Shown here: positions 3 to 28,897 of the stretch, one piece after another
Layout: every line of letters begins with the position of its first letter
How positions within the stretch are numbered: the stretch's first letter is position 1
Origin: Candidatus Saccharimonadota bacterium
GTDB lineage: Bacteria; Patescibacteriota; Gracilibacteria; UBA1369; 2-02-FULL-48-14
Direction: 5' to 3'
DNA length: 32,000 nucleotides
Assembly (NCBI GenBank): GCA_041661045.1
Contig: JBAZVE010000001.1
Coordinates: forward strand, 720,001 to 752,000
Program-made: the position numbers and the translations under genes
Notes under the pieces: model-generated
Seen by the model: the letters and a program-made list of their open reading frames with translations, nothing else
The model's database searches: none
What the model was told of the DNA's origin: nothing

Positions 3-2099
3 TTGTTTGCCGAAAAAACACTGACGGAATTTTATCCGGATTTTCCGCGGGATGGGAAGGGAATGGCACGATTGATTCATGATTTTAGCTGGCCGCACAC
101 GGCGTTTCCCAGTCATGTGACGCCCGGAGTTCCCGGGTCCATTTTGGAAGGTGGTGAATTGGGTTACAGTTTAGCCACCGCCTTTGGCGCGGTGATGGAT
201 AACCCCAACTTGATTGCAGCAGTGGTGGTTGGAGATGGAGAAGCGGAGACCGGGCCCATCGCGGCGGCTTGGCACAGTAATAAATTTCTCAATCCACGGA
301 CCAGTGGAGCGGTGCTTCCTATTGTGCACATCAATGGTTACAAAATTTCAAACCCCACTATTTTTGGGCGCATGGATGATAAAGAACTTCGATCCTTGTT
401 TGTGGGTTATGGTTATGAGCCTTTTATTGTGGAAGCCCCCAATTTGGAAAGCAAGATGATGGAGGTGATGGAGGAGGCGTATCAACGCATTCGTAAAATT
501 CAAAAGGCTGCACGGAAGAGCAAGAAAGCATTTTTAAAGCCCAAGTGGCCTGTGATTTTGCTTCGGTCTCCCAAGGGCTGGAAGGGGATTCAGAAATTTC
601 ATGGACACAGTATTGAAGGATCTTTTCGTGCGCATGGCGTTCCCGTTGGACATCCCAAGGAAGATCCCACGGCGCTCAAGGCTATTGAGAGCTGGCTCAA
701 GATTTATAAAATTCAAGAATTGGTGGATGCACAGGGGCGGCCCAAGCCGGAGGTTTTGGAGTTTGTGCCCACGGGGGCCAAGCGCATCGGAGCATGCAAG
801 CATGCTATTGGAGGGAATATCATGCAGCCGCTCAAATTGCCGGCGGCGGGGAAGTATGCGCTCAAATTTAAGAAACGGGGACAGGTACAGGCGGGAAGCA
901 CGCCGGTGGGTGCGGAGTTTTTACGAGACCTTACGGTGCTCAATCCTAAGACATTTCGCATCTTTTGTCCCGATGAATTGGAATCGAATTTGTTCAAAGC
1001 CGTGTTTGAAAAAACGGGACGGGGCTTTATGTGGCCACTCAACAAAAATGATGAGCACATGCAGCCCGACGGGCGCATTCTGGAGATGCTTTCGGAGCAC
1101 ACTTTGCAGGGCTGGATGATGGGATACACGCTCACCGGTCGTTTTGGATTCTTCTCCAGTTATGAGGCTTTTCTTACGATTATTGCGAGCATGGTGGATC
1201 AGTATGCCAAGTTTTTAAAACAGAGCTTTAAAGTGAAATGGCGTAAGCCCGTGCCTCCTTTGGTTTATCATTTGGGCAGTGTGGGGTGGAGGCAGGAGCA
1301 CAATGGATATTCGCACCAAAATCCAAGTTTTGTGAGCAATCTTTTGCAAAAGCATGGGGAGTTTTGCCAAGTGTATTACCCCTGTGATGCCAACAGTTTT
1401 TTGGCGGCCATGGAAGAAGCTTTTCAAAAACCCAACACCATTAGTGTGATTGTGGCGGACAAACGCGAAGTGCCTCAGTGGCTCAGTTTGGCGGAGGCCC
1501 GTGAGCAGGCCAAGGCGGGTATTGGAATTTGGGAGTGGGCGACGGGCCGCGAGGCGAGTCGAAATCCGGATGTTGTTTTGGCCAGCGCCGGAGATTACAT
1601 GACGCAGGAAGCCATGCACGCCATTCAACTGTGTAAAGAACTGGTGCCGGAAATGAAGATTCGCATGGTGAATATTTCTGAACTCACCGGGCTGTGTATG
1701 GGAGACTACTGTGGTAGCTCTCACGCATGCATCAACGAAGCCATGGTGGAGAAATATTTTACAAAAGATAAGCCGGTGGTCATCAACTATCATGGGTACA
1801 CCAATGACATGGAGCAGGTGCTTTGGTCCTTTGTGGATGCCAAACGATTCAGTTTGCATGGTTACCAGGAACGCGGATCCACCACCACTCCTTTTGATCT
1901 TAAGGTGGTGAATGAAACGGATTTTTACCACTTGAGTATGGACATGATCCGCTTGGCCTCGCCGCACAATAAAGCGGTTGCCAAAAAACGCGATACACTC
2001 ATCGCGCTTTTGGAGCAAAAGATCCGTGACCATCAATCCACCATTTGTGAGACCGGCGACGATCCCAAAGAAGTGAAAGTGCTCAAGTGGAAGAGCTAA
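3..2099 (+). CDS. xfp: Xylulose-5-phosphate/fructose-6-phosphate phosphoketolase (5' end cut by window edge)
   Basis: The 698-aa ORF is open at the window start. It carries the phosphoketolase/TPP-enzyme hallmarks EGGELGYS and VVGDGEAETGP, and its length and order of conserved blocks fit the XFP family. Confidence 0.93.
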   Translation: MFAEKTLTEFYPDFPRDGKGMARLIHDFSWPHTAFPSHVTPGVPGSILEGGELGYSLATAFGAVMDNPNLIAAVVVGDGEAETGPIAAAWHSNKFLNPRTSGAVLPIVHINGYKISNPTIFGRMDDKELRSLFVGYGYEPFIVEAPNLESKMMEVMEEAYQRIRKIQKAARKSKKAFLKPKWPVILLRSPKGWKGIQKFHGHSIEGSFRAHGVPVGHPKEDPTALKAIESWLKIYKIQELVDAQGRPKPEVLEFVPTGAKRIGACKHAIGGNIMQPLKLPAAGKYALKFKKRGQVQAGSTPVGAEFLRDLTVLNPKTFRIFCPDELESNLFKAVFEKTGRGFMWPLNKNDEHMQPDGRILEMLSEHTLQGWMMGYTLTGRFGFFSSYEAFLTIIASMVDQYAKFLKQSFKVKWRKPVPPLVYHLGSVGWRQEHNGYSHQNPSFVSNLLQKHGEFCQVYYPCDANSFLAAMEEAFQKPNTISVIVADKREVPQWLSLAEAREQAKAGIGIWEWATGREASRNPDVVLASAGDYMTQEAMHAIQLCKELVPEMKIRMVNISELTGLCMGDYCGSSHACINEAMVEKYFTKDKPVVINYHGYTNDMEQVLWSFVDAKRFSLHGYQERGSTTTPFDLKVVNETDFYHLSMDMIRLASPHNKAVAKKRDTLIALLEQKIRDHQSTICETGDDPKEVKVLKWKS

Positions 2100-2291
2100 A
2101 GGCCGCCGTGCGGGGCCCTTGGTGCTGCCAATGCCTCGTGGACTTTGTGGCTCGTGTCGACCCTGGTCTCTGGGCCGGTGCTTTTTTGCCATGCTTCAAA
2201 TCCGCGGTGAGGCATTTCTCCTCTCTTCATTTGTTGGAAAGGATTTTCAGTCAGTCCGGGAAAGTTTCGAGGGGCCATAGAATAGGGGGTT

Positions 2292-2324
2292 AAATATAAA
2301 AACGCCCCGCTTGTGCAAGCGAGG
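2292..2324 (-). terminator. Intrinsic terminator (minus strand): CCTCGCTT-GCAC-AAGCGGGG followed by CGTTTTTATATTT
   Basis: An 8-bp GC-rich stem (one U.G wobble) with a 4-nt loop and a U-rich tail, read on the minus strand. On the plus strand the wobble becomes a C.A mismatch and no T-run follows, so the element is strand specific. Confidence 0.6.
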
Positions 2325-2348
2325 TTTGTGAATAAAAAAACCTCGCTG

Positions 2349-2438
2349 CTAGTTTAGGACTAGAATAATGGCGAGGCTAGACACAGCAAGACCCAATTGG
2401 GCTTCGAACTTGCGGCAATGGGTTGAATGAAGTGTCAT
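2349..2438 (-). CDS. Speculative 29-aa small ORF (MTLHSTHCRKFEAQLGLAVSSLAIILVLN) with a hydrophobic C-terminal half
   Basis: ATG at 2438 and TAG at 2351-2349, hand-translated. It lies between the putative promoter (2449-2476) and the terminator (2292-2324). It is too short for the ORF track, and coding status is unproven. Confidence 0.2.
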   Translation of the reverse strand: MTLHSTHCRKFEAQLGLAVSSLAIILVLN

Positions 2439-2448
2439 AGTAACCTTG

Positions 2449-2476
2449 AGTTTATCAAAAACGGTTTTTTTGTCAA
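2449..2476 (-). promoter_or_regulatory. Sigma-70-like promoter TTGACA-N16-TAAACT (minus strand)
   Basis: -35 TTGACA at 2476-2471 (a perfect consensus that contains the pta TGA stop at 2475-2473). -10 TAAACT at 2454-2449 with a 16-nt spacer. Confidence 0.45.
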
Positions 2477-3408
2477 TATTTCATTTGCGCTTGGACCGTG
2501 GTGAAGGCGGTCAGATGAACGATGTCTTCGACGGAAGCACCGCGAGAGAGTTCGTTGACGGGTTTTTGTAGTCCTTGCAAAATGGGGCCGATGGCCTTGG
2601 CGCCCGCGAGCCGCTCCACTAGTTTATAGGCAATGTTTCCGGCTTCTAAATCTGGGAAGATGAGGATATTGGCATGGCCGGCGAGAGGGGAGCTGGGGTC
2701 TTTGAACTGGCCCACGGCATCGATGAGCGCGGCGTCCACTTGCATGGGGCCCTCAATGCTCAAGGAAGGATTTTGTTGTTTCACCAGTTTGGCGACGGCA
2801 TGCAATTTTTGAGCTTGAGGGGTTTGGCTGTTTTCTCCCGTGGAAAAAGAGAGCAGGGCGATTTTTTGTTCCAAGCCAAACTGCTTCGCGCTTGCCGCGC
2901 TGTCGGAAGCAATTTGAGTCAGTGTCTCCACGGAAGGATCAGTGTTTACGGCACAATCCGCAAAGACGAGGACGCCGCCGTTGGCGGCGTCCGGGTTCGT
3001 ATCCGTAGGGAGCACCATAAAAAAGAGGCCCGAGGCCTTCCATCCTTTTTCTTTTGTTTTTATGATTTCCAGGGCTGGAAGAATGCGTTCACGGGAGGCG
3101 GCGCTCGGGCCGGCAATCATTCCATCCGCTTCCCCTTCGTGTACAAGCATGGTGGCAAAATAGTGGGCCGTTCGCATCTTGCTTCGCGCCTCTTCTTCTC
3201 GTGCGCCACGGAGCTCCATGAATTTTTTAACGAGAGTTTCAAAACGGGGATCTTTACTTGGTTCGCCAAATACAACTGGAATTGCCAAATTCTCTTTGCT
3301 GATGATTTTTATGGCTTCTGCAACGCGGGGCTCAGATCCTTCTGCAAAAACAATCCGCTTGGGATTTTCTTTCGCACGGTCCCAAACTTGCTTTAAAAAG
3401 TCCTCCAT
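2473..3408 (-). CDS. pta: Phosphate acetyltransferase
   Basis: 311-aa ORF. The N-terminus (KRIVFAEGSEPRVAEA) and the C-terminal blocks (ANILIFPDLEAGNIAYK, GPILQGLQKPVNELSRG) are typical of the short-form PTA_PTB family. Confidence 0.92.
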   Translation of the reverse strand: MEDFLKQVWDRAKENPKRIVFAEGSEPRVAEAIKIISKENLAIPVVFGEPSKDPRFETLVKKFMELRGAREEEARSKMRTAHYFATMLVHEGEADGMIAGPSAASRERILPALEIIKTKEKGWKASGLFFMVLPTDTNPDAANGGVLVFADCAVNTDPSVETLTQIASDSAASAKQFGLEQKIALLSFSTGENSQTPQAQKLHAVAKLVKQQNPSLSIEGPMQVDAALIDAVGQFKDPSSPLAGHANILIFPDLEAGNIAYKLVERLAGAKAIGPILQGLQKPVNELSRGASVEDIVHLTAFTTVQAQMKY

Positions 3409-5148: not shown

Positions 5149-6123
5149 TTACGCGGCTCTCTTGGTTTCGAATGCGGGGCTTGCGTGGAGTGGCGCTGGT
5201 GTTATCCTTTCAGGTGGCCTTCCGGTTGTTGCCTCGAGTGGCTTTGGAGTTATTACTTCAGGTGGCGCTCCGATGTTTTTCTTGAGTGGCGCTCCAGGTG
5301 TTGCATCGAGTGCGACTTCAGGCTGTACGGCGTCTGCCTCAGCGGCATGCTTTGCTTCTTGAGCAGCTTGTACCTGAGCTGCTGCTTCCGCTTCAGCGGC
5401 TCGTTCGGCATTCATGTGTTCACGCACTTTGGGCATCCGTTCCACCACTAGATTTCCCATTGTCACTCCCCTCTGAATAAGTTCACCTGCCTCTGTAGCT
5501 TCTACATGTCCGGTGACCATGCCACCCACTTTGAGAACAGTTCCAGCGGTTTTACTCGTTTTTATGAAGTTTGAGAAAGCTTGATCGGCAGCGGCTGCCA
5601 CTTCCGTTGAAGCAGGAACGATTCCCAAGGAAAACATGGCCGCAACGGTAGGCTTGTTGACCAACATGGAGATGTCACTGATCAAGGGATCCGGGATGAA
5701 TTTTGCGAAGAAATTGCGTTTGAGCCCTCCCCACAGCGCTTCGACTAGCTTTTTCCCTAGCACTGCTCCCGGTGAAAGTACAGCGACGATTTTTTCAAAT
5801 CGACTGAAGGAGAGTCCGGTCAGACCTTTTTCCATTAAGGCCATCTTTTCTTCGTCAGAGAGCTCAGTAAGAATTTGAACCGCTCTTTCATTTCTGCTGG
5901 CAAAGCTGTTGGCGGCAAAGGTGAGGGCCTCGATGTCTGCCCCTGCTGTAGCGTTTTTTTGTAAAATACCGAGAATCTCCATTGGCAGACTGCCTTCGGG
6001 GGCTTCATTAGTTTCTACGGGGGCGCCGTCTTCTCCATCCATATCTACCTCTCCATCCACATCTAAGGGATCGACTTCGACATCATTATCAGGATTTTCT
6101 GGACCGTTTGAATTGTGTGACAT
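5149..6123 (-). CDS. Hypothetical protein (324 aa): acidic N-terminus, A/E-rich helix, Pro-rich C-terminal repeats
   Basis: A long ORF with protein-like composition that fills the gap between flanking genes. I recognise no family motif. Confidence 0.6.
   Translation of the reverse strand: MSHNSNGPENPDNDVEVDPLDVDGEVDMDGEDGAPVETNEAPEGSLPMEILGILQKNATAGADIEALTFAANSFASRNERAVQILTELSDEEKMALMEKGLTGLSFSRFEKIVAVLSPGAVLGKKLVEALWGGLKRNFFAKFIPDPLISDISMLVNKPTVAAMFSLGIVPASTEVAAAADQAFSNFIKTSKTAGTVLKVGGMVTGHVEATEAGELIQRGVTMGNLVVERMPKVREHMNAERAAEAEAAAQVQAAQEAKHAAEADAVQPEVALDATPGAPLKKNIGAPPEVITPKPLEATTGRPPERITPAPLHASPAFETKRAA
5176..5324 (-). repeat. Three tandem 48-nt (16-aa) degenerate repeats inside the 324-aa ORF
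   Basis: The plus-strand anchor GAGTGG recurs at 5188, 5236 and 5284 (period 48), and TTCAGG(T/C)TG recurs at a similar spacing. The repeats encode PL....PPE(V/R)ITP(K/A) units. Confidence 0.6.
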
Positions 6124-17100: not shown

Positions 17101-17484
17101 TCTTACTCCCTATAAGCCGAGTTCTGTCTTGCAACGAGTTTAGTGTTGCAAGTGTGACCATTTCTCTGGGCCTTCTATTGCTAGAGGGCTCAAGCGGTGG
17201 GCGCACGGGGGTCTTAGGCTGACCGGGTCCCGCACTCCATTCCCACCTTGCAAGGAAAAGGGTTTACCTAGCCGACTCTCTCTCGAGAGGGCTCCCCATA
17301 TTCCACCACCACTTGCGTGGGGCTAAACAGAGGGGGCGTTTCATGTTGGTGCGTCTCTGTGGCACTTTCCCTACTGCGCGTTTTTGAGATCGCGCGGCGG
17401 CCGCCGTTAGCGGCTTTCCTGCCTACCTTGCTCGGACTTTCCTCACCCTTTCTCCGAAGAGTAAAGAGCGCGGTCACAAGGAGC
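17101..17484 (-). ncRNA. rnpB: RNase P RNA, bacterial class A
   Basis: The minus strand reads GAGGAAAGUCCGAGC (CR-I), GUGCCACAGAGACGCACC, GGCUAGGUAAACCC, CUUGAGCC...GGCCCAGAGAAAUGGUCACA and ACAGAACUCGGCUUAUAGGGAG, colinear with the E. coli M1 RNA blocks. P1 (GCUCCUU/AGGGAGU) and P2 (GUGACC/GGUCAC) pair the two ends, and there is a P3 UUCG hairpin. End coordinates are accurate to about 5 nt. Confidence 0.9.
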
Positions 17485-20314: not shown

Positions 20315-22174
20315 TTAAGCCTTCTTTTTGGAATCCGCTCCACTGTGTTTCGCAGTGTCTTCAAAAATTTCAATGAATTCCTCACGGGTGAGGGTTTCTT
20401 TATCGATGAGGGTTTTGGCCACGCGCTCAAGGCCTTTTTTGTGTGTGGTGAGCGTTTCTTTGGCGGTTTTGTAGGCCTTTTGAACCAAGGCCTCCACTTC
20501 TTTATCGATTTGAGCGGCCACTTCTTCGGAATAGTTTTTGGTGTGTCCGTAGTCACGACCCAGGAAGACTTCATGGCTCTTTTCACCAAACACGGTGGGG
20601 CCGATTTTTGCGCTCATTCCATACTCGGTGACCATGCGGCGGGCGATGCTGCTGGCGCGTTCCAAATCGTTGGAGGGGCCTGTGGAGACCTGTCCATAGA
20701 TCATTTCTTCGGCCACGAATCCTCCAAGCAGGGAGGCCATTTCGTGTTCAAACTTTTGTTGAGTGACCATGTGTTTGTCTTCGTCCGGCATGAACCAAGT
20801 GGACCCCAGGGACATCCCACGAGAGATGATGGTGATTTTACGGAGTGGGTCGCAATCTTCCATCAAATGGCCCACGATGGCGTGACCGGTTTCGTGGTAA
20901 GCGGTGACTTCCTTTTCCTTTTTGGACAGCACATGGGATTTTCGCTCAGGCCCCATTTGTACTTTTTCAACGGACATTTCGATGTCGCGCTGAGTGACTT
21001 CTTTTTGATTTTTCTTGGCGGCCAAAATGGCGGCTTCGTTCATGAGGTTTTCCAGATCTGCTCCGGAGAAACCGGGCGTTTGTTTGGCGATGTGGCCCAG
21101 GTCCACGCTCTTGGCCAGGGGCTTGTTTTTGGAGTGCACTTTGAGGATTTCTTCGCGATCTTCCATGTTGGGGCTGTCCACCACCACGCGGCGGTCGAAA
21201 CGACCGGGACGGAGCAGGGCGGGATCCAAAACATCCGGACGGTTGGTCGCGGCCATCACAATGACATTGGTGTTGGTTTCAAAGCCATCCATCTCTGTGA
21301 GGATTTGATTGAGGGTCTGTTCTCGTTCATCGTGACCTCCGCCGAGTCCGGTTCCCCTTTGGCGGCCCACCGCGTCAATTTCATCAATAAAAATGATGCA
21401 GGGCGCATTCCGTTTTGCCTTTTTAAAGAGGTCCCGCACGCGGCTGGCTCCCACTCCCACAAACATTTCCACAAACTCGCTTCCACTGATATTAAAGAAA
21501 GGGACATCGGCTTCGCCGGCCACCGCTCGAGCGAGCAGGGTTTTACCGGTTCCCGGACCTCCCACCAGCATCACTCCTTTTGGAATTTTTGCGCCCATGG
21601 AGGTGTACTTGCTGGGGTTTTTTAAGAAATCCACAATTTCAACCAACTCTTCTTTGGCCTCTCGCACTCCGGCCACGGCATCAAAGGTTGTTTTCTCTTT
21701 TTCTTTATCGTGCAGTCGGGCGTTGGATTTACCAAACGACATGGCTTGGTTGTTGCTGCTGGCCGCTCCGCGCATCATAAAAAACAGAAAACCGATGATG
21801 AGCATGAATGGGATCACGGCGAGTCCAATATTCAGCCATACCCCCTTGCTTGAGGTGTCCACCACTTCGATTTCGAGCTTGCCCACAATGGTTTTATCCA
21901 CCTCTTGAAGCAGTTCGTTCACCGTTTCTCCCGCCTCTTTGTAGGCATATTTTTGAGTGCCATCGATCAAGGTGTAGTCCATTCGAGTGTCTCGAACTTC
22001 CACCGTTTCCACCGTTCCATTTTTAATGTCCTCCGTGAATTGGCTGATGGACACTTGTTCGCTGCTCTTTTGCTCGCCCGAATTCCACATGGAATAGACT
22101 GCGGAAATGAGCAGAGTGGCTACGAGCAAGGTCACTAAAGGATTGGGTCGTTTTCTTTGAAGAATATTTGCCAT
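20315..22174 (-). CDS. ftsH: ATP-dependent zinc metalloprotease FtsH
   Basis: Two TM helices, AAA Walker A GPGTGKT, Walker B IIFIDEID, the SRH region, and the HETGHAIV zinc site. Confidence 0.97.
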
Positions 22175-22242: not shown

Positions 22243-22656
22243 TCAGGGGGCGGTGACCGCGAGAACCTGCTCATGTACTACACTTAGGCTGTCCTCATCA
22301 AGTGGGCCATCCACATCCCCTCCCAATTCATCTTTTGTGGGTGAAATGAGCCGTAGGGCGAACAAGGCGGCTATCTCCTCTGAGAGGTCTGTCTTCTTGA
22401 ATTTCCTTTTTTCTCCCTCTGTTAATGGACATTGGTAACCGAATTGTACGCATGCTCTCAAAGCTCGATCGGTGAGGTCTTGCAGGGTTGGATTTTGTGG
22501 TGTTCTACTGAGTAGATCGGCGAGAGTGCGTAGTATTTCCCCAGCGATTTCCCTACTGTAGGATTCTCTACTTTCAAATGTATTAAGTTTTTCAGTAAGC
22601 CCCTCTAAATCTAGGTCTATCTCTTCCGCTGCAGCGTTTTCTTCGGGACCCTCCAT
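22243..22656 (-). CDS. Hypothetical acidic protein (137 aa)
   Basis: The ORF is divergent from the TGase-vWA gene across a 130-nt spacer. No motif recognised, and coding status rests on ORF length and placement only. Confidence 0.5.
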   Translation of the reverse strand: MEGPEENAAAEEIDLDLEGLTEKLNTFESRESYSREIAGEILRTLADLLSRTPQNPTLQDLTDRALRACVQFGYQCPLTEGEKRKFKKTDLSEEIAALFALRLISPTKDELGGDVDGPLDEDSLSVVHEQVLAVTAP

Positions 22657-22786
22657 GCTTGGGTGTGTTAAAGGATGGCATTAATAAAGACCTGAAGAGA
22701 GTGTATGTCAAGAGGCGAGGGGTTCAAATGTGCACAGTGCAGGTCAAACATTGGCATGATCAAGTAGTTTGTGCTAAAATGGAAGG

Positions 22787-25291
22787 ATGTCAAATTCGGA
22801 TTCCAGCACAGGAGTAGAAAGCACTTTAGCCGGTACCGAGGTCAAAGGTGCTAAAGAGCGTGCCCATGCACACATGGAAATAGCCCTAAGAAAGGCACTT
22901 CAAAAAGAAATGCTAGGGCTGATCACAGACGAGGAACGGGCAAAAGCATTCCGCCCGCATCGTTCAGACCCACTCTTGCCCAAAATCTTTAAATGGCGCG
23001 CTTACCATCGATTGAGAGGTGAGGGCCTCCCTTATGAAGCACCACAAAAAGCAGAATTTTCTCTACTGGAGCAGTTTGATGAAGCCTGTAAACAAGTGCT
23101 GATGACCGGCACGGCGCCGGAACTGCCAGCTGAACTCAAGGCATTGTGGGAAGGCGAAGGTGGGAACTCTGTGGCTGATCGACTGCAATGGGTCACTGGC
23201 AACTATCAACCCAGTCTTTTGCTCGAATTTTGCAGGGAAGTGGAGTCCGTACGAGAGCAAGTTAAACAACTGCAAAAAGCAAAAGCACCCAAGTTTAGCT
23301 ACCGGCCACAAACCGGCTTATCGGATGAAGAGCCCATCAAACCTGAAGACATCGAAGCCAAAGTTACGCCTTTTTACGGAGGCTACTATAGGCAATATGT
23401 TTGCAAGTGGGATCCGATTCAAAAACAGATCGTTCAAGAAGAAACGGACATTCACGAATTCCAAGTTGAGACCGACGAAGCACTCAAAAAATACCACTAT
23501 GAACTGTTGATTAAAAGGTCGGAGCCCATCGCACTGGAACTCCCTTATGATGCGATCCCATTGGTGGAATCTTTAGAACCTGCAACCCACCGTTTGTGTC
23601 GTTCCGAGTCGGGAACTTTTTACCTGGTGCCGAAGAGCCCAGCAGAGTTCGCCAAAGACCTTCCAAAAACCCTGAATTTTGATTTTGTACTCACCAATCT
23701 GCCGGAGAACAGACTCACAGATGGGCCAACGGATGAACCCGAAGTGCCAAGCACCACTTGGGATGAAGAAACCGCTTCATTCCTAAATACACTCCAAAGG
23801 CTACCGGGAGCCTCAGACACGCAAAAAATAAAACGGATCGAAGCTTTTGTACGAAAAAAATTCAAATATCCGGCGGATGTGAACGAACGAGACCAGATGA
23901 ATTCAAATTGCGCCAGTACGACAGATCATTTTAGAGCCCTTTGTGAAGGAGGCGTTGCCGATTGTTACTGGAGCAACCTCTTTGCCGGCGCTCTCGCACA
24001 AACCCTGGGTATCCATCACCGCTTGGTTGCCGGTCGTTTTGTCACCAAAGATCCGCGCTTTGATTTCGCGGCCCTGTCAGGCACGGGACACGCCTGGGGA
24101 GAATGGTGGAATGGGCAAGAATGGGTACGAATGGAGGCCACTCCCGCCAAAGAAAAAGACGATAGGCAAGAAGAGGAAGAAGGCGAGTCTCAGGAAGGGG
24201 ATTTTGGGGAGGCACAGGCTCCAGAGGAAGAAGCTCAGGAAGAACTGGAACTTGAAGAAATCCAAGGAATGTATAAAGATTTGCTCCAGCAAGCGGGCCG
24301 GATTGATCAAGCGCCAACGCCCGAAGTCCTATTCAAAGAAAAAGAAGGGATCTCGTTCCAAGAGTGGCAAAAAGTAGAACGATTCATCGAGGCGGTGAAC
24401 GCCACGCCGGTTTTGGCTGAGCACAGCATCGACGGCCGGGCCTCCACACTGGGAGAGCAGTGGAGAAAACTCTTTGACCTCCTCTTCAAACGAAGAAAAG
24501 TACCAAGACCCGCCTACCGAGGGCCGGTGAGGGCCAGCGAAGGAGATGAGCTCTACGATCCAACGATGGCGGTGATCGATGTTTTAAGTGGTGAAGAGGA
24601 CCCCATGGGCTTCAAACTCCCAAGTCTGAAAACAAGAGAACACATCGATATTTTGGCTTTCGAGGATGACGCGATCATGGATCTCACTACCTCCATGACG
24701 AGCGCGGGAGTGAGTGGAGCCTTGCCCGTGGAAGAGCAGAAAAAGATGATTCTGGCCGGCCTCTACAACCTTATGAAACTCAATGATCGACTCCATCTGG
24801 ATGCCAATCGTAGAGCCATGTGCCATCCGCTCACTTTGCGGAGTCACTTGCAAGCCTTCAAAGGTAAAGAAACGGTGGAACTCTTACACAATCCAAGCAA
24901 AGCTTTGGATAAAAAAGCGCTGGCTCGACTCTTCCAAGCATTGGATCAAACCCAAACTGGAGCTGGAGATCTATTGGGAGCCCTTCAAAATTATGAAGCC
25001 TCGCTCAAACCCGAAACTCTTCAAAAAATCAAAGACAAAAAACTCCTCAAAGTCCTCACCATTGTTTCCGATGGAGAAGTGGCGAATCAAGCGGAATGTG
25101 TACAAATAGTCGCTCAACTACGAGAAAAAGGCATCGTGGTGCAGGGAATTGGATTTGGAGCGCAAGCTCAGTCCATCCGTGTGCTCTGCCACGACGAGGC
25201 GCACAAAGATTCCGCAGTGGTCATTGAAGATGTGCGGCAGGCCTCGTTCACCCGTCATCGTCTTCTCGTTCAGCACTTGAGAAAACTCTGA
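22787..25291 (+). CDS. Large cytoplasmic protein: unknown N-terminal region, transglutaminase-like core, acidic linker, C-terminal vWA (MIDAS) domain
   Basis: TGase-like core: GVADCYWSNLFAGALAQTLGI (Cys393), GTGHAWGEWWNGQEWVRMEATP (His435, Glu450). vWA: AIMDLTTSM (DxTxS MIDAS, aa 632-636), QTGAGDLLGAL, LTIVSDGE, GIVVQGIGFG. No signal peptide or TM segment is visible. Confidence 0.8.
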   Translation: MSNSDSSTGVESTLAGTEVKGAKERAHAHMEIALRKALQKEMLGLITDEERAKAFRPHRSDPLLPKIFKWRAYHRLRGEGLPYEAPQKAEFSLLEQFDEACKQVLMTGTAPELPAELKALWEGEGGNSVADRLQWVTGNYQPSLLLEFCREVESVREQVKQLQKAKAPKFSYRPQTGLSDEEPIKPEDIEAKVTPFYGGYYRQYVCKWDPIQKQIVQEETDIHEFQVETDEALKKYHYELLIKRSEPIALELPYDAIPLVESLEPATHRLCRSESGTFYLVPKSPAEFAKDLPKTLNFDFVLTNLPENRLTDGPTDEPEVPSTTWDEETASFLNTLQRLPGASDTQKIKRIEAFVRKKFKYPADVNERDQMNSNCASTTDHFRALCEGGVADCYWSNLFAGALAQTLGIHHRLVAGRFVTKDPRFDFAALSGTGHAWGEWWNGQEWVRMEATPAKEKDDRQEEEEGESQEGDFGEAQAPEEEAQEELELEEIQGMYKDLLQQAGRIDQAPTPEVLFKEKEGISFQEWQKVERFIEAVNATPVLAEHSIDGRASTLGEQWRKLFDLLFKRRKVPRPAYRGPVRASEGDELYDPTMAVIDVLSGEEDPMGFKLPSLKTREHIDILAFEDDAIMDLTTSMTSAGVSGALPVEEQKKMILAGLYNLMKLNDRLHLDANRRAMCHPLTLRSHLQAFKGKETVELLHNPSKALDKKALARLFQALDQTQTGAGDLLGALQNYEASLKPETLQKIKDKKLLKVLTIVSDGEVANQAECVQIVAQLREKGIVVQGIGFGAQAQSIRVLCHDEAHKDSAVVIEDVRQASFTRHRLLVQHLRKL

Positions 25292-25322
25292 TTTTCAGGT
25301 AGAATAAAAGGAATACAAAACC

Positions 25323-27941
25323 ATGGCAAAAAGAAAACCCACTCTTCCCGGAGCACCCTACGAGCAAAGACAAGTTCCTGGAACAAACGCCGAATCCTGG
25401 CGAGCCCACTTGGCAAATGGAGAAAGTGCCGAATCTATACCTGAAGGCGAAGTCACTGCCTTCACGCATGCTCACGGTTTGCAGGTGCTAAGACTCCTTT
25501 CGGAATATTACGCCGTGGGTGATGAAACGCTTGCCGGTACAGATTATAGAGTGCCCGCAAAACAAGGCTCGGATGCGCTTCTTGAGACACTTCGAGAGGA
25601 TGCGGAGCCCACAAGCTCCACGGAAAACCCGCTCACTCGCAAAGACGCTGTACGGCGTGAACTCATGGGACTCTTGGGTTTGCCCGGAGCGGATCAGGTA
25701 TTTTTTGAGGTCTTGGAAGCGGAAGGAAATCGTTTCAGAGCGGCACTCCCCATACTCAAACAAAAAGCCAAACTGGATGAACTCATACACTTGGCTCGAA
25801 ATAAACAAACAGCGCTCTATCAAAAAGATCGAGCAGATTACGGCACCCTTCAGGCCACTACCGAAGCCAATATCGGCGCACTGGAAGGTGGGGTAACACA
25901 AGCCAAAGAGGATTTCGCAACGAAGACAAGAAGCTTGCCCGAACAAAGCCGGGGTTGGCTCCTCACTCAGGAGCTTTTGGGCTACAAAAATCAAATGGAT
26001 ACAAACGGAGGCTTTGCCCTCACACCGAGTCGGCAGAAAATGATCGATCGTATGCTTCAGGCCATGCTACATGGAGAAAAGGTTCTTGCACTCGGTTCTA
26101 CGGGAACGGGTAAAACGGAACTCGCCATCGCGGTGGCCAAAATCGCTTCGGGTGGCAAAGAACCGATAGTCGTGGAAGTGCACGAAAATATGACGGTGGC
26201 AGACCTGATGGGCCGTTTGGGGATTAAAGCAGTGGGCACGGCTCAGATGGAAACGGAACTCGTCGAAGGCCCAATCCTGCAGGCAAAACGGGAACACCGA
26301 GTGCTTATTTTAGACGAAAAAACCACCGGCCCCAATCGTCTTTTTATGGGGATCAAGGCGACTTTAAACAAACTGGAAAGAGACAGAAGCTTTCCTGGAC
26401 TTATTGCCACGGGGAACATCAAAGATGAGCGCACCAGAGATCGTGAAGAAACGGATCCCGCGGTGCTCCGTATGTACAGAGCAGCGATTCAAGTGCCTTA
26501 CATGAGCGAGGAAGAACACTATAAAGTGGTGCTGGCTCAGCTCATGGATCCGACTGGCCTTTTGCCCTTCCCAAAAACCGAACTGCTTTTTTTAAGAAAG
26601 TTGACGAAAGCCGGTAGACTCATGCAGATGTGTCACGATCGGTCGGTTGGAGCACTCACAACAGACTTGCCCGAAGCAAATCGAAAAATGCTCGCGGACT
26701 GTTTTGGAGGCGAACTGGATCAGATCCACTTGGATAAAAACTTCTTGGACACGGGAACGCTCCTTTCTCTTTTTAAAGGCTGGTCCAATGAGCGAGCAAA
26801 AGGAAAGCCCTTCAAGGCCTACTTGAAAGACGAACTGGTCAACTTTTTAGACAGCGCCAAATTCAGCATGGATGAAGATGAACGCAAACTGGCACGGACG
26901 ATTATGGAACTCACGGGCGTGCTCAGTGGGGGTGAGCCGGATGGGCCGAAGGTGGTTTCAAACGAAAATCCCTACCTACTCCCATCCGAAGTGGGGGAAT
27001 TGTTTTCACTTGCTCCTTCAGATGATGATCCCCGTGGAAAGGGAAAATCTGGAGGTGAGGATGACACTCCCAAGCCTCCAGAAGACGACCCCATTCCCCC
27101 CGAACTCACCCGTGAAAACTTCGAATGGGTAGAGAACAAGCTACGGGTGGACTATTATTTTTCCAAAGAAGCCATTGAAAAACACTTCTTAAGAGAAGGA
27201 GACCGCCCCGTGCCCGCCAAGGCTGATATTATAGACGCCGTACGCGAAAAGCTTACCAATGCTCAGGTCAATCACCTGCGAGCCTTGGAAGTGGCCGGCC
27301 GTGAGATCCGTTTTTTTCTCACCCCTATGGTCTCCGGAGCTCGTTTCAAAGAAGTGCTGAGCAAACCAGAGTTAATGCCTTTCTTTCAGCACCAAGGTGG
27401 CCAAGTGGATCCTTTTATGCATAGCAACTATGAAGTAGCAATCAACGCCTGTCGTACACCAAACTCACGGCAAACGGAATCCATCACGGAATATGCCTGG
27501 ACATTGGGAGATTCTTCAGATGACTCCACGGCCAAAGCAGGTGATCCTGACGATTCTTACAATCAGGCCGATCACATGACACTGGGGTTTCGAAGCGATG
27601 CTTTCAACACTCACCATCAGGTTTGGAAAACTGGCCTTTCCAGTATGGACAGCGCGGAATACGCCATGCTCCAGGTTTTGAAGGCAATGGAAGGTAAGTA
27701 CTGTGACGATATCAATAGAGAGCTCACTAGTAGCGATGGAACCCTTGGCACCTACACGGTTTTACCGGCAAAGAATGATGGAATCACCGGCAAAGCTACT
27801 ATGCATAGGAACGGAAATACTGTGTGCCTGGGCTTTCTAGATTCAGGCAGTGGTCGTCAGAGGCTGGACTTGAGCGAAGAGCCTCTGAGCACTCGGGGTC
27901 GTAAGGCGCGTCTTCGTTCCCGGGTAATGCATAAAATTTAG
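25323..27941 (+). CDS. Oversized AAA+ ATPase (AAA_5/MoxR-like core at about aa 235-410) with unknown N- and C-terminal regions
   Basis: Walker A LGSTGTGKT (aa 257-265), Walker B RVLILDE (aa 326-332) and sensor-1-like IATGN. It starts 31 nt after the vWA gene and is preceded by AAAGGAA. aa 411-872 have no motif I recognise. Confidence 0.8.
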   Translation: MAKRKPTLPGAPYEQRQVPGTNAESWRAHLANGESAESIPEGEVTAFTHAHGLQVLRLLSEYYAVGDETLAGTDYRVPAKQGSDALLETLREDAEPTSSTENPLTRKDAVRRELMGLLGLPGADQVFFEVLEAEGNRFRAALPILKQKAKLDELIHLARNKQTALYQKDRADYGTLQATTEANIGALEGGVTQAKEDFATKTRSLPEQSRGWLLTQELLGYKNQMDTNGGFALTPSRQKMIDRMLQAMLHGEKVLALGSTGTGKTELAIAVAKIASGGKEPIVVEVHENMTVADLMGRLGIKAVGTAQMETELVEGPILQAKREHRVLILDEKTTGPNRLFMGIKATLNKLERDRSFPGLIATGNIKDERTRDREETDPAVLRMYRAAIQVPYMSEEEHYKVVLAQLMDPTGLLPFPKTELLFLRKLTKAGRLMQMCHDRSVGALTTDLPEANRKMLADCFGGELDQIHLDKNFLDTGTLLSLFKGWSNERAKGKPFKAYLKDELVNFLDSAKFSMDEDERKLARTIMELTGVLSGGEPDGPKVVSNENPYLLPSEVGELFSLAPSDDDPRGKGKSGGEDDTPKPPEDDPIPPELTRENFEWVENKLRVDYYFSKEAIEKHFLREGDRPVPAKADIIDAVREKLTNAQVNHLRALEVAGREIRFFLTPMVSGARFKEVLSKPELMPFFQHQGGQVDPFMHSNYEVAINACRTPNSRQTESITEYAWTLGDSSDDSTAKAGDPDDSYNQADHMTLGFRSDAFNTHHQVWKTGLSSMDSAEYAMLQVLKAMEGKYCDDINRELTSSDGTLGTYTVLPAKNDGITGKATMHRNGNTVCLGFLDSGSGRQRLDLSEEPLSTRGRKARLRSRVMHKI

Positions 27942-27964
27942 CCCACAAATCTTGGGAGGGGGGC

Positions 27965-28897
27965 TTACTGCAGTTTTGCCCGTTCTTTGGTGAGGAGGAG
28001 GAATTTTTGGCCTTTTTTGCCGAGAGGGTCCCATTCGGTTTTTTTGCGGGGATCCAGGGTGCGGATGGCTTCGTCCCAACGGTCTAAGGTGGCGTTGTCG
28101 GGGATGCGTTTGCCCGTGCTTTCCAAGTACCAGAGTTCCAAGACTGTGGTGCGGGTTGGATAGGGGAGTTTGGTGAAGGCGCTTCGGTGAAGGCCTTCTT
28201 TGGGGTCCAGATTTTCTTCCATAAATGTGAGGGCTTCTTTTTCGAGCATCACTTGAAGTTCATTCCAATAATGCTTCTGTTTTTGCCAACGGTCGGCCAG
28301 GCCAGGGTACACATGATTGAGCACGGGGATGATTTTGTGACGGAGGAAGTTGCGCATGTAGCGCTCGTCTTCGTTGGTGGGGTCGTTGCGGTAGGGGATT
28401 TGGTGAGCTTCGGCGTACGCGTTGATCTCGCTGCGGGAAGTGTAGAGGAGTGGACGGACCAATTTCCCGCGCACGGGAGCCATACCGGCCAAGCCTTTAA
28501 CACGGGTTCCACGGAGCACATGGAGGAGCATGGTTTCAAAATCGTCGTCTTGGTGGTGGGCGGTGAAAATGAAATCGGCGTGGTGTTTTTTAAACAGTTT
28601 TTCAAAAAATTCGTAGCGTTTTTCTCGGCCCCATTCTTCGATATTGCCGGTTTCGGGCGGGCGGGGTTTAAAAAATTCACAGGAAAGTTCCCATCGTTGC
28701 ATCATTCCTTTGGTGAAAGCAGCATCGTCTTCGGCGGAGGGTCTGAGACCGTGATTGACATGGGCGGGGATGACTTTAAGATCCGGGCGCTGGTGGATGA
28801 GTGCGTGCACCAAAGCCATCGAGTCTCGGCCCCCCGAAACGCCCACAATAACCGTGGATTCTTTGGGGACCGACTTTAAGTCGAGTTTGAGTTTCAT
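27965..28897 (-). CDS. tilS: tRNA(Ile)-lysidine synthase
   Basis: N-terminal PP-loop VGVSGGRDSMAL, then AHVNHGLR and HHQDD blocks typical of TilS. Confidence 0.9.
   Translation of the reverse strand: MKLKLDLKSVPKESTVIVGVSGGRDSMALVHALIHQRPDLKVIPAHVNHGLRPSAEDDAAFTKGMMQRWELSCEFFKPRPPETGNIEEWGREKRYEFFEKLFKKHHADFIFTAHHQDDDFETMLLHVLRGTRVKGLAGMAPVRGKLVRPLLYTSRSEINAYAEAHQIPYRNDPTNEDERYMRNFLRHKIIPVLNHVYPGLADRWQKQKHYWNELQVMLEKEALTFMEENLDPKEGLHRSAFTKLPYPTRTTVLELWYLESTGKRIPDNATLDRWDEAIRTLDPRKKTEWDPLGKKGQKFLLLTKERAKLQ

Follow-up and report, generated by a model that had tools for sequence, protein, structure and literature searches.

Two adjacent genes at positions 22787 to 27941 of the DNA analysed here raise a question of both identity and function: why is a transglutaminase-like protein with a von Willebrand factor A (vWA) domain encoded beside an oversized MoxR-class ATPase, and does the pair constitute a system of a new kind? 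The DNA is a 32,000-nt stretch of contig JBAZVE010000001.1 (assembly GCA_041661045.1, Candidatus Saccharimonadota bacterium), referred to below as the window, and all positions are counted from its first letter. Gene 1 (22787..25291, + strand) is an open reading frame (ORF) of 834 aa whose product contains a TgpA-like transglutaminase (TGase) fold, an acidic linker, a helical region and a vWA domain with a metal ion-dependent adhesion site (MIDAS). Gene 2 (25323..27941, + strand) is an ORF of 872 aa that encodes long N-terminal helices, one AAA_5 module of the MoxR/NorQ class, a lid with a helical region, and a C-terminal domain whose last part is homologous to the variable region (VR) of diversity-generating retroelements (DGRs). 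A first-pass annotation made from the sequence had described two co-oriented ORFs of these lengths, 31 nt apart, whose products lack transmembrane (TM) segments. This description held in every respect (maximum 19-residue Kyte-Doolittle values of 1.15 for protein 1 and 1.05 for protein 2), and neither protein has a signal peptide. As described below, the window pair is a DGR-less ('orphan') chromosomal copy of a conserved two-protein module.

The ATPase is a DGR variable protein in related loci

Pfam family AAA_5 matched aa 254-342 of protein 2 (E=3.7e-9, 37.1 bits against a cut-off of 22). The AAA+ core (aa 231-400; 26013..26522, + strand) contains a Walker A motif (GSTGTGKT, aa 258-265; 26094-26117), a Walker B motif (D331/E332; 26313-26318), N365, R374 and R383, all of which are invariant columns in our ATPase alignments (A6 and A7). 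A profile of the protein 2 family searched against the PDB matched midasin (2e-33, summed over its AAA domains) and NorQ (1.8e-10), as well as CobS and CbbQ, and a Foldseek search with the protein 2 model returned NorQ (2e-9) and CbbQ (2.5e-8). These matches bear out the earlier proposal of an AAA_5/MoxR-type Walker A/B core inside an oversized protein. The approximately 700 aa surrounding this core had been left unassigned; they now resolve into long N-terminal helices at aa 123-228, the AAA+ lid with a helical region at aa 401-530 and, at the C-terminus, a domain with a DGR-VR-homologous end. Members of the family are typically 800-950 aa in length, and an exhaustive profile search recovered 346 clusters (50% identity) at E<=1e-30, which indicates that the family is large.

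Related loci were collected from a scan of one genome per species (29 loci) and from protein look-ups, which together gave approximately 25 distinct loci with enough flanking sequence to judge. The source assemblies of the homologues carry Gracilibacteria, Peribacteria, Doudna-, Roizman-, Pace-, Uhr-, Falkow- and Saccharibacteria labels, all of the Patescibacteria type. Two metagenome-assembled genomes labelled 'uncultured Gammaproteobacteria' (L015 and L018) also carry a Patescibacteria-type cassette with 27-37% identity; these contigs are probably misbinned or phage-derived. The first-pass annotation had proposed to look for conservation of the two genes as neighbours, and the ATPase gene was found to adjoin the TGase-vWA gene in 24 of the 25 assessable loci. 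In L028 a TGase-vWA gene stands without an adjoining ATPase gene.

DGR components were found at most of these loci: an adenine-biased pair of template repeat (TR) and VR, a reverse transcriptase (RT) with Avd, or both were present in about 22 of the 25. Genes for an RVT_1 reverse transcriptase and bAvd adjoin the pair in L001, L003-5 and L006. In each of the first three loci we identified a pair of repeats of approximately 105-135 nt, one copy being intergenic beside Avd and the other constituting the 3' end of the AAA_5 gene. The mismatches between the two copies fell at adenines of the intergenic copy in 21/21, 22/22 and 13/14 cases (93-100%). Since nearly all TR/VR differences fall on adenines of the template and the VR forms the 3' terminus of the gene, we conclude that the AAA_5 ATPase is the DGR variable protein in L001, L003-5, L006 and about 20 further distinct loci. 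The variable region corresponds to the last ~40 codons of the ATPase gene, and two gene orders recur among the relatives: TGase-vWA gene, ATPase gene with VR, TR, Avd and RT; or ATPase gene with VR, TR, Avd, RT and TGase-vWA gene. Some lineages end in ...GGxxxxxW...IGFRVAVV, resembling canonical C-type lectin (CLec) VRs.

The variable domain is not always fused to the ATPase. In L042 (4221-8118) separate genes encode an ATPase of 555 aa and, as two proteins of 361 aa each, the VR domain, an arrangement that supports the idea of a modular sensor domain, and separate VR proteins of about 315 aa are also encoded in L028 (11144-12103) and L031 (11886-14936). Such separate VR proteins (~315-360 aa) are sometimes present in multiple copies, all targeted by one template. 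DGR-less pairs other than that of the window are intact in L012 and degraded in L030, where the ATPase is fragmented, and L034 retains a TR and has lost its RT; therefore, the retroelement has been lost repeatedly while the pair was kept.

The association of this ATPase class with DGRs has precedents. Among candidate phyla radiation (CPR) bacteria, an AAA ATPase with a C-terminal variable domain is given as the commonest DGR target architecture in the part of PMC10907252 that cites Paul et al. 2017. Wu et al. 2018 left the VR fold of the CPR 'UVR4' targets unassigned and found Midasin-domain matches in them (PMC5758913). The pair had originally been put forward as a candidate for an undescribed system; as far as these accounts of the 'UVR4/Midasin' and commonest-target classes go, the ATPase half was already on record as a DGR target, and that claim is not upheld.

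The window carries an orphan copy of the module

Protein 2 was aligned with the proven variable proteins over 95-96% of its length at 30-33% identity (E=3.6e-105 to 4.8e-98). It shares with them a length of approximately 850 aa, the AAA_5 module and a C-terminal ...ARLRxxVM sequence. These similarities indicate that protein 2 belongs by orthology to the DGR variable protein family of Patescibacteria. Its C-terminal segment (aa ~826-868; 27798..27926, + strand) aligned with the adenine-mutagenised VRs of the orthologues, the window C-terminus reading ..KARLRSRVMHKI and the L001 VR ..ARLRASVMGEIKT in alignment A6; no cognate template for this VR homologue was found here.

We use the term orphan to mean that RT, Avd and TR are absent within 22 kb upstream and 14 kb downstream in a genome of ~1.3 Mb. 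Immediately downstream there is no room for any of these elements because gene 2 ends 23 nt from a convergent tilS-like gene (27965..28897, - strand; PF01171 ATP_bind_3). An 18-nt direct match with TR-like spacing (27901-27918 and 28358-28375) was considered and rejected, as it is at chance level and extended matches to the VR are absent from the window. In search of a remote template, metagenome contigs were scanned with GCANTCGGNNTCNTAANGCGCGNCTTCG, a pattern made up of the positions at which the window and L009 VRs agree; the sole match was in an unrelated contig (L039), and the contig of the window lies outside that collection, so the scan is uninformative. From these data we conclude that the window copy is a DGR-less chromosomal copy of the module and that gene 2 is not demonstrably a current DGR target.

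Comparison with L009, a second module copy whose nucleotide identity to the window is 81%, suggested a different past. In the VR, 21 of the 26 mismatches between the two copies involve an A in one of them, compared to 51% in the rest of the gene. The codon changes include AAT to TTT, CCT and GGT, and the window VR has a 6-nt indel relative to L009. Because the VR differences lie mainly where one copy has A, they are best read as a trace of past DGR action.

The ratio of nonsynonymous to synonymous substitution rates (dN/dS) was computed between the same two copies. Overall values were 0.17 for gene 1 and 0.21 for gene 2, with lower values for the AAA+ core (0.06), the vWA domain (0.10) and the TGase core (0.13) and a value of 0.81 for the last 72 codons of gene 2. 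Both window genes are under purifying selection. In addition, an independent assembly was 100% identical to the window over 10.8 kb. The specificity of the window copy appears to be frozen, since there is no retroelement nearby, yet selection maintains both genes.

One structural difference separates these two copies from their DGR-linked orthologues. Approximately 13 aa between Walker B and sensor 1 are missing in the window and L009 ATPases and are present in the orthologues (consensus IPGFNGxxFEVKEGxGE); the gap lies at ~26330-26400, or aa ~337-360 of protein 2. This segment may correspond to the pre-sensor-1 insert, through which MoxR ATPases contact their partners.

Protein 1 combines a TGase-like fold, an acidic linker and a vWA domain

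Homologues of protein 1 were found in 55 cases, all of the Patescibacteria type. An AlphaFold model built on the family alignment had a mean confidence score (pLDDT) of 76.8. In this model an N-terminal helical domain (aa 21-165) and a beta-sandwich (aa 190-302) together span 22847..23692 (+ strand), and the beta-sandwich contains a PFYGGYY motif (aa 195-201) whose columns are invariant. The TGase core follows at aa 327-453 (23765..24145, + strand), where Pfam Transglut_core matched aa 342-451 above its curated cut-off (E=5e-9). The top Foldseek match of the model was the periplasmic domain of TgpA (PDB 6g49, E=3e-7), with 291 aligned columns over the beta-sandwich and the Cys-His core. Cys393 (23963-23965) and His435 (24089-24091) are invariant in 21 aligned sequences with identities down to 22%, the set to which all conservation statements for protein 1 refer. 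The third residue of the triad is Glu450 (24134-24136) in the window versus Asp in the other 20 of the 21 sequences, including one that is 85% identical. The predicted Cys-His domain may act as a protease, in cross-linking, or in neither way.

A poly-acidic, predicted-disordered linker (aa 456-495; 24152..24271, + strand) contains 18 D/E in 40 aa; the same number was counted within aa 449-488, and pLDDT was <50 at aa 458-487. In the middle of this otherwise low-complexity disordered stretch is a GDFGE motif (aa 471-475; 24197-24211), of which the first three residues (G471, D472 and F473) are invariant and the last two (G474 and E475) nearly invariant. This motif could serve as a MIDAS pseudo-ligand or as a segment gripped by the AAA+ ring. 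It is the one observation bearing on the conjecture of the first-pass annotation that the linker might occupy the MIDAS site in cis. A helical region (aa 489-570) lies between the linker and the vWA domain in the model.

The vWA domain (aa 624-831; 24656..25279, + strand) was identified from the strands and helices of the model, Foldseek and the family profile; it was not detected by Pfam in the window protein itself. Precomputed Pfam VWA/VWA_2 matches are available for approximately 20 of the 55 homologues, and a profile of 21 family members picked out vWA domains in the PDB, namely those of PTMP1, TRAP and MIC2 (E=1e-4 to 1e-3). Foldseek matches included NorD in the NorQD complex (9qhd_G, E=3.6e-7), Rea1-MIDAS (6qt8, E=6e-7) and also the TRAP and integrin I domains. 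The MIDAS consists of D632-x-T634-x-S636 (24680-24694) and D762; D632, S636, D762 and G763 are invariant, and the MIDAS Thr of the middle loop was not identified in the window clade. A fold search of viral proteins in BFVD returned only vWA-domain matches and no full-length analogue. The three features that the first-pass annotation had recognised in this protein, the Cys-His core, the C-terminal DxTxS MIDAS and the ~40-aa acidic linker, were thus all substantiated, with the added detail that the third triad residue is Glu.

Genomic context and mobility

The genes surrounding the module in the window are of a housekeeping type, namely those for phosphoketolase, Pta, GltX, FtsK, SecA, RNase P RNA, Hsp20, FtsH, TilS and type IV pilus components. 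The left flank is ftsH (20315..22174, - strand; its ORF translation is an FtsH protein), and the module lies on the strand opposite to the flanking ftsH and tilS. The ftsH and tilS genes are commonly adjacent in bacteria. The layout of ftsH, module and tilS looks like an insertion. Around the module, neither a target-site duplication nor terminal repeats exceeding chance were detected; a 14-nt inverted repeat (22593-22606 and 27957-27970) that might have marked an insertion boundary was rejected as being at chance level, since by our own estimate about four such pairs are expected.

Indications of mobility came from L009. Homology to the L009 module starts at 22771, 16 nt 5' of the gene 1 start codon, and the 7 kb upstream of the L009 copy contain no match to the window. 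Because homology starts at the module edge and the L009 upstream region is unrelated, the two-gene unit has moved as a block. Related cassettes are often carried on mobile DNA. The L044 cassette is flanked by genes for terminase, SPP1 portal and minor capsid proteins on one side, and by those for major capsid, HK97-gp10 and tail completion on the other. In L043, a prophage or viral contig that is the same as the IMG/VR viral contig L045, the cassette follows tail tube and Dit genes and precedes GmrSD and Thoeris; at L043 17329-22697 it is directly followed by a helix-turn-helix gene, an EcoRI-type methylase, GmrSD, a PD-(D/E)XK protein and Thoeris ThsB/ThsA. Homologues of ParB-methyltransferase and TerL are nearby in L001, L019/L042 and L022, and the L006 cassette is within an integrative conjugative element (ICE) with a type IV secretion system (T4SS), relaxase and recombinase. 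Neither protein has a specific family in PHROGs, where only generic ATPase families were matched.

Other features of the window were recorded as well. A promoter-like site (TTGGCA-18-TAAAAT with an extended -10 TG; 22751..22780, + strand) precedes gene 1; it came from a consensus scan with 10/12 matches and is no more than a match to the consensus. Between ftsH and gene 1 is an ORF for an acidic 137-aa protein (22243-22656, - strand) that had no significant Pfam, NCBIfam, PADLOC or PHROG match, the best being a sub-threshold Pfam match (E=0.07). The identical Logan assembly has this ORF too, and it is missing beside the L009 module copy. Phosphoketolase (XFP) and phosphotransacetylase genes occupy the left end of the window (3-3408). 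Two tandem 48-nt copies that are 73% identical (5181-5276) lie inside an ORF of 324 aa (5149-6123, - strand) without a Pfam match, and a bacterial class A RNase P RNA is encoded at 17102-17483 (- strand; 140.7 bits, E=1.8e-43). All ORFs of the window read through in the standard code, so that UGA is not recoded in this lineage, unlike in some Gracilibacteria. Past the right end of the window, ~10-14 kb beyond gene 2, L040 (16157-20585) contains T4SS-pilin-like genes and a DUF87/TrwB ATPase. Possible identities of this cluster are a conjugative element and a T4SS-like apparatus of Patescibacteria, and pilus genes and a tRNA synthetase gene stand between it and the module.

Proposed function and alternative explanations

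Taking the evidence as a whole, we consider it probable that the window pair is a DGR-less copy of a sensor/motor/effector conflict module. The identity part of this reading is very likely. The mechanism, which is drawn by analogy from MoxR-vWA precedents and from DGR-linked vWA-MoxR systems, is offered tentatively, as a plausible outline rather than a probable one. According to this outline, protein 2 would form a hexameric ring displaying six C-terminal ligand-binding domains, and the vWA domain of protein 1 would dock on the ATPase ring. Capture of a ligand by the C-terminal domains would gate ATP-driven remodelling of protein 1 via its charged linker, and this remodelling would switch on or redirect the Cys-His domain, which would cleave or cross-link the target. 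The hypervariable C-terminal domains, six per ring, would be natural ligand sensors, and the Cys-His enzyme domain with its invariant residues a natural output. The likely role would be in inter-genomic conflict involving a phage, a mobile element or the host, with the DGR supplying new sensor specificities; the cytoplasmic location, the DGR diversification and the Thoeris and GmrSD neighbours all point in this direction.

Parts of this outline have been described in other systems. In NorQD the pore is entered by a vWA extension and the NorQ ring remodels the NorD linker (PMC13036017), and conformational change through helical and charged linker regions was discussed by Kaur et al. (PMC7159879, section 8). 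The layout of protein 1, with an N-terminal functional domain followed by a charged linker, a helical region and the vWA domain, matches the NorD-type precedent.

Several results weigh against the conflict-module reading as applied to the window. Searches of the window by tblastn with three RTs and two Avds, which find both components in most related loci, found neither, and the 10 kb past its right end, taken from an independent assembly, also contained no RT or Avd. A TR-like copy is absent from the 32 kb, as no repeat of at least 40 nt involves the end of gene 2, and the best local alignments of the VR-equivalent segment with the rest of the window scored 26-28 versus a shuffled mean of 28.1. 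The fold of the variable C-terminal domain was modelled with pLDDT <50 (aa 730-870), and a profile of 17 C-terminal domains had no C-type lectin or FGE-sulfatase match in the PDB or Pfam. The module sits among housekeeping genes, outside any defence island. PADLOC 2.0 returned no match for protein 1 and only a weak generic P-loop match for protein 2 (E>=0.004). Finally, the window copy may work differently from its DGR-linked relatives because of the Asp to Glu change in the triad and the ~13 aa missing from the AAA+ module. The conflict system that had been suggested at the outset is retained as the best reading; relatives on phages and an ICE and their diversification by DGRs speak for it, and the absence of a known defence family in PADLOC and the housekeeping context of the window copy speak against it.

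The same housekeeping context, between ftsH and tilS, would suit a housekeeping MoxR-vWA maturation chaperone of the NorQ/NorD, CbbQ/CbbO or CoxD/CoxE-like type, whose task would be cofactor insertion into, or remodelling of, a single fixed cellular client. In that case the ATPase would have a client adaptor in its C-terminal domain, and the TGase fold would be non-catalytic or have a processing role. NorQ and NorD themselves are the closest solved structures, and the lack of a DGR in the window together with purifying selection would suit such a function. However, a fixed client is difficult to reconcile with a client-binding end that is hypermutated by DGRs in the orthologues. Carriage on phages and an ICE with no conserved metabolic neighbour, invariance of the catalytic Cys and His, and the occurrence of the 81%-identical L009 copy in an unrelated neighbourhood also argue against this explanation, which we regard as unlikely.

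Carriage on phages could instead mean that the module serves the phage or mobile element itself, in virion assembly, host recognition, host takeover or anti-defence, and that the window copy is a leftover of an integrated element. The cassettes in the phage structural and packaging regions of L044, L043/L045, L001, L019 and L022 are consistent with this possibility, and phage DGRs classically diversify receptor-binding proteins. MoxR-vWA pairs are also known in viruses (PMC7159879 section 8), BFVD contained phage vWA/CobT-like matches, and the p618 MoxR and p892 vWA tail-development pair of ATV offers a comparison. Nonetheless, neither the 32-kb window nor the next 10 kb to its right contained a phage gene, PHROG matches were limited to generic ATPase families, and the family is present on only one IMG/VR contig. 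The proteins have no structural-protein features, the ATPase needs cytoplasmic ATP, and purifying selection acts on both genes in their chromosomal setting. We judge a phage function for the module to be distinctly unlikely.

The window copy might also be a decaying relic of a former DGR cassette that no longer has a function. RT, Avd and TR are not nearby; the triad Asp to Glu change, the 13-aa AAA+ deletion and the 6-nt VR indel relative to L009 could all be signs of decay, and some other DGR-less loci are visibly degraded, such as L030 with its fragmented ATPase. Decay is argued against by intact ORFs of 834 and 872 aa, by dN/dS values of 0.17 and 0.21 that fall to 0.06-0.13 in the catalytic cores, by the 100% identical independent assembly, and by the second intact DGR-less pair in L012, so that a functionless relic is very unlikely. 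Least credible of all is a surface adhesin for host-cell attachment, the usual reading of DGR targets in episymbiotic CPR bacteria and the general interpretation in reviews (PMC10221324), as both proteins lack a signal peptide and TM segments, an AAA+ ATPase needs cytoplasmic ATP, and CPR DGR targets typically have no TM domains according to Roux et al. (PMC8144416).

Returning to the conflict module, its most elaborate form would be a compact two-protein, retroelement-programmable intracellular recognition system of Patescibacteria and their phages. The hexameric AAA+ ring would capture an invader or host protein with its hypervariable C-terminal domains and, by means of ATP and via the vWA-MIDAS adaptor, would free an autoinhibited TGase-fold protease or cross-linker, and GDFGE would be a MIDAS pseudo-ligand in cis or a segment pulled by the ring. 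The window copy would be domesticated, with a fixed specificity and a stable cellular role. We consider this complete version doubtful.

The DGR targets of CPR bacteria are numerous, and the customary adhesin guess does not fit a cytoplasmic, ATP-dependent class. The pairing of the commonest CPR DGR target with a TGase-fold/vWA partner, often on phages and near defence genes, leads to a testable sensor/motor/effector hypothesis. If this hypothesis is true, the idea of a hypermutated antigen sensor coupled to MoxR-vWA would reach beyond multicellular bacteria to the smallest bacteria known and to their viruses. Orphan copies, with frozen specificity and intact, selected genes, are a handy entry to the biochemistry and could show domestication of a diversifying system.

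Comparison with known systems

The closest structural matches of the pair are NorQ/NorD and CbbQ/CbbO, with which it shares the order of the partner protein (N-terminal domain, linker, vWA domain) and, by analogy, ring-driven remodelling of the linker (PMC13036017). The NorQ and CbbQ ATPases are only ~260-270 aa, without N- or C-terminal extensions, and have a fixed client; their partners lack a TGase fold, and they have no DGR association. Midasin/Rea1 is the best sequence-profile match to the AAA_5 module and has a D/E-rich region just before its MIDAS, as does protein 1. Midasin is a eukaryotic ribosome-assembly factor of ~5000 aa that contains six tandem AAA domains and the MIDAS in one chain, whereas the window module has a single AAA module, presumably forming a homo-hexamer, and its D/E-MIDAS part is on a separate protein. 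TgpA of Pseudomonas aeruginosa (PDB 6g49) shares the beta-sandwich and Cys-His core with protein 1. In contrast to protein 1, which is soluble and has Glu in place of the triad Asp in the window, TgpA is a membrane protein; its TGase domain is periplasmic, and it lacks a vWA domain.

With the DGR variable proteins of CPR bacteria the window ATPase shares its family, and it differs in that RT, Avd and TR adjoin those proteins and none of the three is present in the 22 kb upstream or 14 kb downstream of the window gene. A TGase-vWA partner for the CPR DGR ATPase is not mentioned in the literature examined, a body of work that excluded Paul et al. 2017 and the supplements of Wu et al. 2018.

Coupling of DGR-diversified sensors to MoxR-vWA systems is on record for cyanobacteria, gammaproteobacteria and purple sulfur bacteria (PMC7159879, PMC10907252). 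The vWA-MoxR-VMAP systems (Kaur et al. 2020, PMC7159879; Dore et al. 2024, PMC10907252) resemble the present module in combining a MoxR ATPase and a vWA protein with an effector of the peptidase type and a ligand-binding domain diversified by a DGR, as well as in their cytoplasmic components and an association with other conflict genes. They consist of three proteins, whereas the window module has two. No conserved third gene was found beside the pair in the related loci examined, and neither protein matched the VMAP families at E<=1. The variable FGS/CLec domain of the vWA-MoxR-VMAP systems is on the vWA protein, and that of the window-type module is on the ATPase; a TGase-like peptidase is rare in the former and is carried by the VMAP protein, while the TGase fold of the latter is on the vWA protein. 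Finally, the vWA-MoxR-VMAP systems occur in multicellular bacteria, and the window-type module occurs in unicellular Patescibacteria with reduced genomes and in their phages. On the basis of its conserved TGase-vWA partner, we conclude that the module is a compact variant of the known DGR-linked vWA-MoxR conflict systems and not an undescribed class.

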